64,000 bases of DNA from Escherichia coli. Its GTDB lineage: Bacteria; Pseudomonadota; Gammaproteobacteria; Enterobacterales; Enterobacteriaceae. The stretch is taken from NCBI RefSeq assembly GCF_045037415.1, contig NZ_CP173438.1, one strand, 5' to 3'. A model generated the notes under the pieces. It did no database searches. It saw only the letters and a list, made by a program, of their open reading frames with translations, and had not been told where the DNA came from. The translations under genes and the position numbers were made by a program. Positions 12,904 through 45,407 of this stretch are shown here, one piece after another; the first letter of the stretch is position 1; each line of letters begins with the position of its first letter.

Positions 12904-12996
12904 GGTGAGGTGGCCGAGAGGCTGAAGGCGCTCCCCTGCTAAGGGAGTATGCGGTCAAAAGCTGCATCCGGGGTTCGAATCCCCGCCTCACCGCCA
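12904..12996 (+). tRNA. serV: tRNA-Ser (anticodon GCU)
   Basis: 93-nt cloverleaf with long variable arm, anticodon loop CTGCTAA, 3' CCA encoded. Confidence 0.93.
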
Positions 12997-12999
12997 TTT

Positions 13000-13076
13000 G
13001 CATCCGTAGCTCAGCTGGATAGAGTACTCGGCTACGAACCGAGCGGTCGGAGGTTCGAATCCTCCCGGATGCACCA
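13000..13076 (+). tRNA. argV: tRNA-Arg (anticodon ACG), copy 1
   Basis: 77-nt gcatccgtagctcagctggatagagtactcggctacgaaccgagcggtcggaggttcgaatcctcccggatgcacca; anticodon loop CTACGAA. Confidence 0.93.
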
Positions 13077-13140
13077 TCTCTTACTTGATATGGCTTTAGT
13101 GGCGGTATCAAAAAATCTGCAGTAAAGTAAGTTTCCCGAT

Positions 13141-13217
13141 GCATCCGTAGCTCAGCTGGATAGAGTACTCGGCTACGAACCGAGCGGTCGGAGGTTCGAA
13201 TCCTCCCGGATGCACCA
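13141..13217 (+). tRNA. argY: tRNA-Arg (anticodon ACG), copy 2
   Basis: Identical 77-nt repeat. Confidence 0.93.
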
Positions 13218-13279
13218 TCTCTTACTTGATATGGCTTTAGTGGCGGTATCAATATCAGCAGTAAAATAAATTTCCCGAT

Positions 13280-13356
13280 GCATCCGTAGCTCAGCTGGAT
13301 AGAGTACTCGGCTACGAACCGAGCGGTCGGAGGTTCGAATCCTCCCGGATGCACCA
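13280..13356 (+). tRNA. argZ: tRNA-Arg (anticodon ACG), copy 3
   Basis: Identical 77-nt repeat. Confidence 0.93.
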
Positions 13357-13419
13357 TCTCTTACTTGATATGGCTTTAGTAGCGATATCAATATCAGCAG
13401 TAAAATAAATTTTCCCGAT

Positions 13420-13496
13420 GCATCCGTAGCTCAGCTGGATAGAGTACTCGGCTACGAACCGAGCGGTCGGAGGTTCGAATCCTCCCGGATGCACCA
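13420..13496 (+). tRNA. argQ: tRNA-Arg (anticodon ACG), copy 4
   Basis: Identical 77-nt repeat. Confidence 0.93.
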
Positions 13497-14813: not shown

Positions 14814-16397
<1,584 letters not shown>

Positions 16398-16406
16398 CAG
16401 AAAAGA

Positions 16407-16479
16407 AAAAGGCCACTCGTGAGTGGCCAAAATTTCATCTCTGAATTCAGGGATGATGATAACAAATGCGCGTCTTTCA
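16407..16479 (-). ncRNA. micA: MicA (SraD) small regulatory RNA
   Basis: Reverse complement reads GAAAGACGCGCATTTGTTATCATCATCCCTGAATTCAGAGATGAAATTTTGGCCACTCACGAGTGGCCTTTTT, matching the MicA sequence as I recall it, with intrinsic terminator. Confidence 0.85.
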
Positions 16480-16546
16480 TATACTCAGACTCGCCTGGGA
16501 ACAAAGAGTTCAGAAAATTTTAAAAAAAATTACCGGAGGTGGCTAA

Positions 16547-17062
16547 ATGCCGTTGTTAGATAGCTTCACAGTCGATCATACCCGGATGGAAGCGCCTGCA
16601 GTTCGGGTGGCGAAAACAATGAACACCCCGCATGGCGACGCAATCACCGTGTTCGATCTGCGCTTCTGCGTGCCGAACAAAGAAGTGATGCCAGAAAGAG
16701 GGATCCATACCCTGGAGCACCTGTTTGCTGGTTTTATGCGTAACCATCTTAACGGTAATGGCGTAGAGATTATCGATATCTCGCCAATGGGCTGCCGCAC
16801 CGGTTTTTATATGAGTCTGATTGGTACGCCAGATGAGCAGCGTGTCGCTGATGCCTGGAAAGCGGCAATGGAAGACGTGCTGAAAGTGCAGGATCAGAAT
16901 CAGATCCCGGAACTGAACGTCTACCAGTGTGGCACTTACCAGATGCACTCGTTGCAGGAAGCGCAGGATATTGCGCGTAACATTCTGGAACGTGACGTGC
17001 GCATCAACAGCAACGAAGAACTGGCGCTGCCGAAAGAGAAGTTGCAGGAACTGCACATTTAG
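16547..17062 (+). CDS. luxS: S-ribosylhomocysteine lyase (AI-2 synthase)
   Basis: 171 aa, HTLEHL metal-binding motif. Confidence 0.96.
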
Positions 17063-17070
17063 TCAGTTTA

Positions 17071-17107
17071 AGCAGAAGAGGCCGGGCTGGTGAAAACACC
17101 GCCCGGC
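17071..17107 (+). terminator. luxS intrinsic terminator
   Basis: 7-bp stem gccgggc...gcccggc followed by TTTTG. Confidence 0.7.
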
Positions 17108-17112
17108 TTTTG

Positions 17113-18225
17113 TTACCTGTCAGTCATCCGATATTCCACGCTATGTGCTTCATCAGGTTGAGGAACTTCCAGCCTTGAGGCCATCCGCATCACGACCGCT
17201 TCAGGAACTGCATACTCGCGTCTGGCATTTTGCTGGTTCCATTGCGCCCATGGCACTTCCAGATAAACGATTTTTACTCGTGCGCCGTAAGCCGTAAACA
17301 GACTGATGAGCTGGCTGCGCAGCTGGCGGGTAATGTTCGTTGCATTCCAGATGAACGGCTTTTTCTGGCGTAAAAAAACGCGCGCCTCTTCTTTTGCCTG
17401 TTGCACAATACGCCCGGTGGCGGTTTTGTCGTCCGGACTGGCATTGATTCGCCGCCGCATATCATCAAGGCTGATAACGTCCATTCCCTGGCACTGTTCA
17501 CTGATATAGCGATCTTTGCCCATACCCGGTAAGCCACACAGCAAAATAACCTCAAAAGGTTCAGCCTCCCAGGGAACAAAATCAGGAGAACTTTGCTCAT
17601 GAGTCAGGTAGTGCCAGCGTGCGGAATCAGAAACGAACGGGCGCATTTTTCCCCAGCATTGTTGCTCATGGCAAAACAGCTCGAACAGATCGATGCGTTC
17701 CAGCATTGATTGCTGATCCGGGCTTTGGCGACCAAGCAGATCGGCACGAGCAAGCAAAGCGAGCAGACGCGTGTCGATGCGCATTGCAGCCGTGAGCAAC
17801 AAACGCTCCGGTTCCGGACGTTCCAGTAACCATAGCGGTAACCCATGCAGACGCACCAGTGCAACAATTTGCTCGCGCAGCACGAACGGCGTTGGGATAT
17901 CGCGCCATAAAATTTGTCGAGCCGTCAGTTCGCCCCGACGAGCATGACCAGGAGACTGAATACGTCCGTTTTCCTGCACGGTAGTGCTGCGCTTTTCAAC
18001 ATCATGCAATAACGCCGCCGCCCATAAAACTTCCTGCTGTTGAGCGGGGAGTTGCTGGAATTCTGGCAGAGTAATGAGGGCGTTAAGCACCATTTCGGTA
18101 TGTACGCCGACGTCGCCTTCACCATGATGCTCAGGGTCTTGTGGCGTGTGATGCATCTCCTCAACCCAGCTAAAACGCTGACGTAGCGCCGACCAGCGTT
18201 TATCGTCGGTAAGTTGCCAAATCAT
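17113..18225 (-). CDS. Predicted bifunctional RNA/DNA end-healing enzyme: N-terminal HD phosphohydrolase plus C-terminal P-loop polynucleotide kinase (HD-Pnk-like)
   Basis: 370 aa; HD motifs [12 protein letters not shown] and LLHDVEK (H74-D75); Walker A-like GLPGMGKD at 17512-17535; GGAG SD; ATGA overlap with upstream ligase gene; no counterpart at this locus in K-12 as I recall it. Confidence 0.6.
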
Positions 18226-18929
18226 GACTGTTCTCCATAAACGAACTCATGGGCCATCCGCGCCCGTTGCCAGTGGCGTTTCCAGTGCACAGTGGTTTTG
18301 ACATGATTTTTGCGCACATACTTGAAGACGTTATGCGAAAAGTCAGCGACAGAAAACGCATCATGATTTCGGCTGACAATGCCTTCCAGCGTACAGGGTT
18401 GACAGGTTTGCGTATCCCAGGGATCGAATGTGCCGCGCGCATTGGTCAGCGCCAGAAAATCACGTTGCCAGCTTTTTTCATCATTCCCCGGCTGCGGGCC
18501 GGAGATTTCGGGAACGCAGGGGAAATCAAACAGAGCGGCGTAAAACTGCACCTCTTCCCAGCTCAGCCACATATCCTGGCAGCGAACGGCAAACAGGTAA
18601 AAGTCCTGTTCCAGCGCGCGGTATTCAATGGAATGAACGGCGTAGAGATTTTCACCAAACAACTCCAGGTTGCCGAGATCGTTTTTCAGCAGTTGCCAGC
18701 GTTGGCGAATTTTATAGGTCCATGCCGACTGCGTAGGCGTGGCATGGGAGCGGGCAAACACGCCGTAGCGGTTAAGGCAGTTATTTTCGCCATCGAGTTT
18801 TTCTGTGTGCACCAATTGCGTGATGGTCTGTAAATCCTGCCAGTAATCGGTGTTAATGCGGTCATCGCTGGTGGTGCCTGGAGAGAAGGGGTAATGCCAG
18901 GTTCTCCCGTATTTACGTTGGGTATTCAT
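18222..18929 (-). CDS. Predicted ATP-dependent RNA ligase, minimal nucleotidyltransferase domain
   Basis: 235 aa; motif I KLDG (K44, codons at 18789-18800), motif III-like FGE, motif IV LEGIV, motif V KYVRK. Confidence 0.55.
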
Positions 18930-19150: not shown

Positions 19151-19179
19151 CAAATAAAAAGGGAGCCGCAGCTCCCTTT
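19151..19179 (-). terminator. emrB intrinsic terminator
   Basis: On minus strand: hairpin gggagctgcggctccc followed by TTTTTATTTG, directly after emrB stop. Confidence 0.7.
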
Positions 19180-25135: not shown

Positions 25136-25215
25136 AGGTATGATAAGACGCGCCAGCGTCGCATCAGGCATTGTGTACAGAGCGGCGGATGAGGCAAAAA
25201 CGCCTTATCCGCCCG
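25136..25215. repeat. REP element plus hairpin in the proX-ygaY spacer
   Basis: gataagacgcgccagcgtcgcatcaggc REP-type palindrome and ggcggatgagg...ccttatccgcc hairpin. Confidence 0.55.
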
Positions 25216-43364: not shown

Positions 43365-43383
43365 CCGCTCAATTCCTTTGCGC

Positions 43384-44460
<1,077 letters not shown>

Positions 44461-45044
44461 TTACATATTGTTTTCTTATTGTGATCAAAAACAGCAAATT
44501 AATAACAAGTAATGTGAGGGATAAGAATTGGGTTGAAAGGAAATGAATAATTAAAACAATATATTAAGTGTGCTTATACTCTTTTTCGAACTGGTGGCAT
44601 TTGTTTAAATGCTATTTAAACTGCTTTTTCAGAGTTCAACTTACTGAGTTCCGTGTCGACTAATGTGAGTAAGATCAATCGCATCCAACCTATGTTACTT
44701 GATGGCATCGATAACAATATTAATGAACATACAGATTCCGGGAAGGCTGGCTATGGGGGCAAATTATTCTCTTTCTGGAAACGGGTAAATAACAGTGACC
44801 ATTTGTCGAGAAGCTGATACTGAGCTGAGGGATACTGTATATGTCTGGACTGTAATTGGATGAATTCTATTCAGGGCGGGTCAGGACCAATAAAAAAGCC
44901 CGCATCAGCGGGCTTTAATGTCATAGGGAGTCGCGACTCCGTTGCGTATCCTTTTTTGTCTCCTCACCGTCTGGTCGGTGTCCTGCTGAGACTTATAACT
45001 TCCTGTTTTTGTTGGTGTAGTCCTTACACCGTCCAATCATTATT

Positions 45045-45407
45045 TGGTGGAGCTGGCGGGAGTTGAACCCGCGTCCGAAATTCCTACATCCTCGGTACTA
45101 CATGCTTAGTCAGTCTTTACATTCGCTTGCCAGCTGCGGACGGACACGCCACTAACAAACTAGCCTGATTAAGTTTTAACGCTTCAACCCCAGGCAGGGC
45201 TTCCACGCGATCTCTTTTGGGTTTGACCTCTCTTGATCCCCGTCCTAAGAGCGGAGGCTAGGGAGAGAGGGCTCTAAGCAGGTTATTAAGCTGCTAAAGC
45301 GTAGTTTTCGTCGTTTGCGACTATTTTTTGCGGCTTTTTACGAGGCCAACCGCCCCTCGGCATGCACCTTGGGTTTCGCAAATCCCGTCGAATCCAGAAT
45401 CAGCCCC
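45045..45407 (-). ncRNA. ssrA: tmRNA (SsrA), 363 nt
   Basis: Minus strand begins GGGGCTGATTCTGGATTCGACGGGATTTGCGAAACCC and ends ...GGTTCAACTCCCGCCAGCTCCACCA; internal tag-peptide ORF region present. Confidence 0.95.

Follow-up and report, generated by a model that had tools for sequence, protein, structure and literature searches.

MicA acts in envelope stress by Hfq-dependent occlusion of the ribosome-binding site, with decay of ompA and other mRNAs. It has been described in Escherichia coli K-12 and Salmonella as an Hfq-binding RNA of about 70 nt, induced by sigma-E or in stationary phase (PMC1804206, PMC2956633). Its promoter is strictly sigma-E-dependent in Salmonella (PMC1804206), and the sigma-E consensus is GGAACTTTT for the -35 element and GTCAAA for the -10 element (Papenfort et al., PMC1804206). 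RybB, another small RNA, resembles MicA in being induced by sigma-E, in binding Hfq and in having a 5' seed that represses outer-membrane protein mRNAs (PMC1804206), but its sequence is unrelated and its locus, ybjK-ybjL, has no overlapping antisense neighbour. The gene next to micA, luxS, gives rise to several mRNA species; the longest, P1, starts from a G at -332 relative to the AUG, under the control of a sigma-S-type promoter inside gshA (Udekwu, 2010, PMC2956633). The P1 and P2 transcripts cover the MicA gene in antisense, and both decrease on MicA overexpression, with the accumulation of a shorter luxS species that is missing in an rnc mutant (PMC2956633). The RNase III-dependent end of luxS is also TAP-enriched, like the end of a primary transcript (PMC2956633). 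A different type of RNA-related operon bears on the DNA downstream of luxS. As reported in PMC6097658, Munir and Shuman (2017) described an HD-Pnk protein of Runella slithyformis with an upstream, overlapping ligase, and this ligase adenylylates itself and sealed none of the substrates tried.

The DNA analysed here, referred to below as the window, is a stretch of 64,000 nucleotides from E. coli, and is identical, base for base, to positions 1199993-1263992 of the chromosome of E. coli SK1144 (NZ_AP018784.2). When the window was searched in full with Rfam models, nine families scored above their gathering thresholds, MicA among them. The RF00078 (MicA) match runs from 16478 to 16407 on the minus strand, with a score of 83.9 bits against a gathering score of 41 (E=1.4e-11), and spans the whole model (positions 1-75 of 75). 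This score and the flanking open reading frames bear out the proposal that MicA is encoded on the minus strand of the gshA-luxS spacer; the span originally assigned to it (16401-16480) encloses the gene. The check proposed with the original prediction, an alignment to annotated MicA, was made against K-12 MG1655, in which micA (b4442) lies at NC_000913 2814802-2814874, between luxS and gshA; the K-12 gene aligns with window positions 16478 to 16406 at 100% identity, with no mismatch. The features of the locus are listed in Table 1.

Table 1. Features of the micA-luxS locus, with window coordinates
Feature	Coordinates	Strand	Basis
gshA (glutamate-cysteine ligase), 518 aa, convergent with micA	14841-16397	+	ORF list; RefSeq annotation NZ_AP018784.2
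luxS P1 promoter region, sigma-S-dependent (published), inside gshA coding region	16177-16216	+	Primers and start site, PMC2956633
Rho-independent terminator of micA (hairpin 16428-16411, T-run 16410-16401)	16401-16428	-	Terminator scan
MicA sRNA gene, 73 nt (5' end 16478, 3' end 16406)	16406-16478	-	RF00078 full-length match; K-12 b4442 identity
A/U-rich linker AAUUUU between the two hairpins	16429-16434	-	Sequence read directly
Internal stem-loop, MicA nt 23-44	16435-16456	-	Predicted fold; Rfam consensus structure
Seed, MicA nt 8-24, single-stranded, pairs with ompA translation-initiation region	16455-16471	-	Centroid fold; RNAduplex
Sigma-E-type promoter: -35 GAACTC (16511-16506), 16-nt spacer, -10 TCTGA (16489-16485)	16485-16511	-	Pattern scan; conserved boxes
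luxS (S-ribosylhomocysteine lyase), 171 aa, divergent from micA	16547-17062	+	ORF list; RefSeq annotation NZ_AP018784.2
HD/Pnk-like protein, 370 aa	17113-18225	-	AAA_33, 110.8 bits, residues 226-355
RNA-ligase-family protein, 235 aa	18222-18929	-	PF09414 RNA_ligase, 97.6 bits

The gshA-luxS spacer is 149 nt long, and the gshA stop codon (TGA) occupies 16395-16397. Exactly 68 nt separate the 5' end of MicA at 16478 from the luxS ATG at 16547, in agreement with the distance of about 68 bp given beforehand. The terminator had been placed 10 nt past the gshA stop, which is a fair approximation: the 3' end of MicA (16406) is the ninth base after the stop codon, the foot of the terminator hairpin lies 13 nt from it and the T-run comes as close as 3 nt.

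The boxes preceding micA are of the sigma-E type (-35 like GGAACTT, -10 like TCTGA/TCAAA), and at the sequence level the start falls at a conserved GAAAGACGC. The minus strand upstream of the start reads tGAACTCtt-N-GTCTGA-gtatat-G(+1), with 6 nt between the -10 box and the +1 G at 16478. The pattern GAACTY-N15-17-TCTGA occurs only once in the 64-kb window, at 16511-16485, against 0.12 matches expected by chance. Promoters from other Enterobacterales were compared without gaps from -45 to +3, with 119 orthologous loci among the matches listed collapsing to 103 unique sequences. Three islands are conserved in these 103 promoters, gAACT.TT, GTCTgA and, at the start site, TATaTGAA, and the spacer and upstream sequence vary freely. 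Weak hits to the sigma-70 consensus were also obtained on the plus strand (16456-16485) and on the minus strand (16545-16517). Neither lies at a mapped start, and both were treated as consensus noise, because the proximal 5' end reported for luxS gives an overlap of 14-15 nt with MicA (PMC2956633), which places it near 16465 here, and the micA start at 16478 belongs to a sigma-E promoter, a class absent from the scan model.

The minimum free energy of MicA is -21.2 kcal/mol (z=-3.07; none of 200 shuffled sequences folds as well), and the centroid fold (-20.3 kcal/mol) consists of two hairpins, with the 5' third of the molecule unpaired. The first 26 nt of MicA form a duplex of -23.1 kcal/mol with positions -22 to -5 of the ompA 5' UTR, a value equalled by two of 2000 shuffles (RNAduplex), with MicA nt 8-24 lying opposite ompA positions -21 to -6; the ompA leader used in this pairing was that of K-12 rather than that of this genome. 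The same calculation with full-length MicA gave an unrealistically long duplex that ignored the MicA hairpins and was equalled by six of 500 shuffles, and was replaced by that with the 5' 26 nt. The linker between the hairpins is presumed to be the Hfq contact, a role that we take from established knowledge of MicA. The terminator hairpin, GGCCACU CACG AGUGGCC, has seven pairs, five of them G-C, and is followed by TTTTTCTTTT down to 16401.

Orthologues were sought in a collection of species-representative genomes with a 25-nt pattern taken from the 5' part of MicA, and at least 120 loci were found. The matches listed come from Escherichia, Citrobacter, Enterobacter, Klebsiella, Yersinia, Serratia, Pantoea, Erwinia, Pectobacterium, Dickeya, Edwardsiella, Hafnia and other genera. 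Wherever the flanks were visible, in all 120 Enterobacterales loci listed, MicA is flanked by luxS upstream and gshA downstream, both on the opposite strand. Structures were compared for the 83 unique MicA sequences among the matches listed. The 5' 25 nt are invariant in all of them, which is partly forced, since the scan pattern required a match at nt 3-27. The terminator stem has the same six outer pairs in all 83 sequences, and the pairs of the internal hairpin, apart from the outermost, are kept in 74 to 83. The pair closing the terminator loop is A-U in 71 sequences, U-A in four (this window included) and G-C in three. The structure of MicA is, therefore, preserved with compensatory changes at this closing pair; with so little variation in the stems, covariation gives thin support. 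Within E. coli, a 120-nt segment containing the micA gene and its promoter occurs in 5423 of the 5426 complete genomes, with an identity of at least 99% in 5060 of them.

It is nearly certain that the segment 16406-16478 is the canonical E. coli gene for the small regulatory RNA MicA (SraD), given the full-length Rfam score, the identity to K-12, the sigma-E-type promoter, the terminator, the fold z-score, the synteny, the kept stems, the ompA duplex and the presence of the gene throughout the species. The sequence offers no argument against this identity. The window and K-12 (b4442; RF00078) share the 73-nt sequence, the flanking genes, the strand relations, the sigma-E promoter boxes and the terminator; the only differences are two substitutions at promoter-region positions that are not conserved.

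Several other RNA genes and elements lie elsewhere in the window, outside the gshA-luxS region. RybB was not found in the 64-kb window by the Rfam scan. Downstream of csrA, at 12904-13496 on the plus strand, one tRNA-Ser gene is followed by four tandem tRNA-Arg genes spaced by about 140 nt; the four have equal Rfam scores, and two were shown to be identical in sequence. A match to naRNA4 (CssrE) at 25137-25214 on the minus strand, between an MFS transporter gene and proX, scores 61.6 against a gathering score of 59.5, and is probably a REP-type repeat element. The tmRNA gene ssrA lies about 680 bp from glaH (csiD), with no prophage alongside (45045-45407 on the minus strand, and 43380-45040). 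K-12 carries the CP4-57 prophage at ssrA; the attachment site in this strain appears to be unoccupied.

The sequence, together with work on K-12 and Salmonella, points to the following function. In envelope stress, RNA polymerase with sigma-E would start at the G at 16478 and transcribe about 73 nt of the minus strand, and transcription would end at the hairpin and U-run just past the gshA stop codon. The unstructured nt 8-24 of the transcript would then base-pair with the ribosome-binding region of the ompA mRNA, a pairing shown here at the level of sequence, and an Hfq-dependent block to translation and decay of omp mRNAs would lower the outer-membrane protein load.

A second possible target is the adjacent gene. 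The original prediction held that MicA transcription opposes luxS transcription. This applies to the long luxS transcripts initiated upstream of micA, but not to the luxS coding region, from which micA diverges. The G at -332 from which P1 starts corresponds to window position 16215, likewise a G, and the fragment 16177-16216 is identical to K-12. Opposing transcription of micA and the long luxS transcripts is, on these positions, a supported reading. The P1 transcripts would be fully complementary to MicA, and, because the sequence is identical to that of K-12, the MicA-dependent RNase III cut published for K-12 would be expected in this strain too. MicA might even act at this locus mainly as a cis-antisense regulator of luxS, through RNase III cutting of long 5' UTRs, with its trans role on omp mRNAs secondary. 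This possibility draws on the overlap of P1 and P2 with micA, on their decrease when MicA is overexpressed and their replacement by an RNase III-dependent species (Udekwu, 2010, PMC2956633), on a P1 promoter sequence that is intact here, and on the luxS/micA/gshA order, which is conserved in all 120 loci listed and would fit a position-dependent role. However, conservation within MicA is highest in the 5' seed complementary to ompA, the promoter is of the sigma-E type, matching the envelope-stress regulon, and conserved synteny is by itself no proof of a cis function. The effect on luxS comes, moreover, from a single published study using overexpression, in which the end taken as processed was enriched by TAP like a primary end (PMC2956633). 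A mainly cis-acting MicA is, on balance, unlikely.

It is extremely improbable that micA is present yet silent in this strain as a result of changes in its promoter region. Relative to K-12, the 83 aligned nt preceding +1 do contain two changes, one T/A in the A/T tract that precedes the -35 box and one G for C in the spacer, but both lie outside the -35 and -10 boxes, which are intact here and conserved in orthologues, and they affect spacer and upstream positions that are variable across orthologues; the identical sequence is also carried by many E. coli genomes.

The MicA terminator hairpin can also fold on the plus strand, 13 nt past the gshA stop (16398-16445, z=-4.44), where it is followed by AAAAUUUCAUCU, a poor U-tract. 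This tract is consistent with plus-strand transcripts reading through the hairpin, which may terminate gshA transcription incompletely and let the P1 transcript of luxS through. The idea that the hairpin and T-run are merely the terminator region of gshA, with an incidental resemblance to MicA, can draw on this plus-strand hairpin but is next to impossible, as the tail is poor in U and the terminator scan gave a hit on the minus strand and none on the plus strand, the Rfam match extends over the complete 75-position model, with 50 nt of it lying 5' to the hairpin, the conserved sigma-E promoter faces the minus strand, and the identity to K-12 micA contradicts it.

Downstream of luxS, the 63-bp luxS-emrB spacer of K-12 and its hairpin are replaced in the window by 2124 bp containing a two-gene cassette (17113-18929, minus strand), in which the ligase open reading frame lies directly upstream of that for the 370-aa protein and overlaps it by 4 nt. 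The translation of the 235-aa ligase contains a motif I, EKLDGEN. That of the 370-aa protein contains a Walker A motif, GLPGMGKD, and its C-terminal half is a P-loop kinase domain, with a local match to the bacterial Pnkp family TIGR04075 and a match to the solved Pnkp kinase domain of Clostridium thermocellum (4gp6, E=2.5e-4). The N-terminal half matches Pfam HD (18.3 bits against a cut-off of 22) and HDIG (20.1 against 27.6) below threshold in both cases, has a local match to the HD region of CCA-adding enzyme, and shows the residues of an H...HD...H arrangement (HHGEGD, LLHD, GH) in its translation. A sequence search of the PDB with the ligase returned hemocyanin entries only, with no stretch passing on its own, and was considered spurious. 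Neither cassette protein had a match in PADLOC, and assignment to a catalogued anti-phage system consequently has no support. The replacement also brings a strong hairpin at 17081-17107, abutting the 3' ends of luxS and of the HD-Pnk gene, a terminator hairpin on the emrB side at 19160-19177 (both predicted by folding), and a 257-bp region upstream, from the emrB end to the ligase start. The first of these structures, considered over 17081-17111 between the stop codons of luxS and the HD-Pnk gene, is G+C-rich, with 11 bp and a folding energy of -26.3 kcal/mol on the plus strand and -22.3 kcal/mol on the minus strand, and is followed by TTTT in the plus-strand direction; it probably serves both genes as a bidirectional terminator, and differs from the hairpin of the K-12 spacer.

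The original prediction described this cassette as novel. The cassette is real, but novelty does not hold: the pair, annotated as "RNA ligase family protein" and "ATP-binding protein", lies between luxS and emrB in 998 of the 5426 complete E. coli genomes (about 18%), the remaining genomes among the matches listed matching its flanks only, and it corresponds to the described HD-Pnk/ligase type of operon. As described in PMC6097658, the Runella operon shares with it an upstream, overlapping ligase and a partner with an N-terminal HD-like region and a C-terminal domain resembling a P-loop polynucleotide kinase; the E. coli pair differs in an HD match that falls below the curated cut-offs and in having no adjacent genes for Tpt1 or methyltransferase-HIT. 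The cassette resembles the HD-Pnk/ligase repair operon of Runella in its predicted domains and gene order, a likeness drawn from the published description (PMC6097658). It is, judging from these domain matches, a common accessory RNA-ligase/HD-kinase module of a described kind.

The ligase/HD-Pnk pair also follows luxS in a few other genera among the matches listed. Intact pairs lie beside luxS in loci L056 (E. coli), L011 (Enterobacter sp. BIGb0383) and L111, and the Superficieibacter electus locus (L006) contains the kinase gene, cut by the end of the locus. In Escherichia albertii NBRC 107761 (L004, 7226-7489), just an 88-residue C-terminal remnant of HD-Pnk is found by luxS, with 91% identity. 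This remnant and the intact pairs in other genomes suggest an old presence of the cassette at the luxS site, followed by repeated losses.

Published work already covers MicA, its sigma-E promoter, its location in the gshA-luxS spacer and the antisense relation of MicA to long luxS transcripts, and the arrangement had rightly been put forward as known (PMC2956633, PMC1804206). The practical value of the finding lies in annotation. No micA feature was found in the RefSeq (PGAP) annotation of NZ_AP018784.2 at 1216393-1216512, which corresponds to 16401-16520 of the window, and no annotated feature lies under the micA segment in any E. coli genome record among the matches listed; in the records examined, the ncRNA is annotated only in K-12 MG1655. 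The gene has been left out of PGAP records, at least among the matches listed.

For the biology of the locus, a broader arrangement can be envisaged, in which luxS is bracketed by antisense partners in about 18% of E. coli genomes, with MicA antisense to its 5' leader and, at the 3' end, an RNA-repair operon that converges on luxS and shares its terminator hairpin, such that the fate of the luxS mRNA differs according to the presence of the cassette. We consider such an arrangement very unlikely. Under it, the repair enzymes might act on RNAs of the locus cut by RNase III or by stress, for which adjacency is the sole argument, and, if luxS were bracketed in this way, AI-2 output would differ between cassette-bearing and cassette-free strains.
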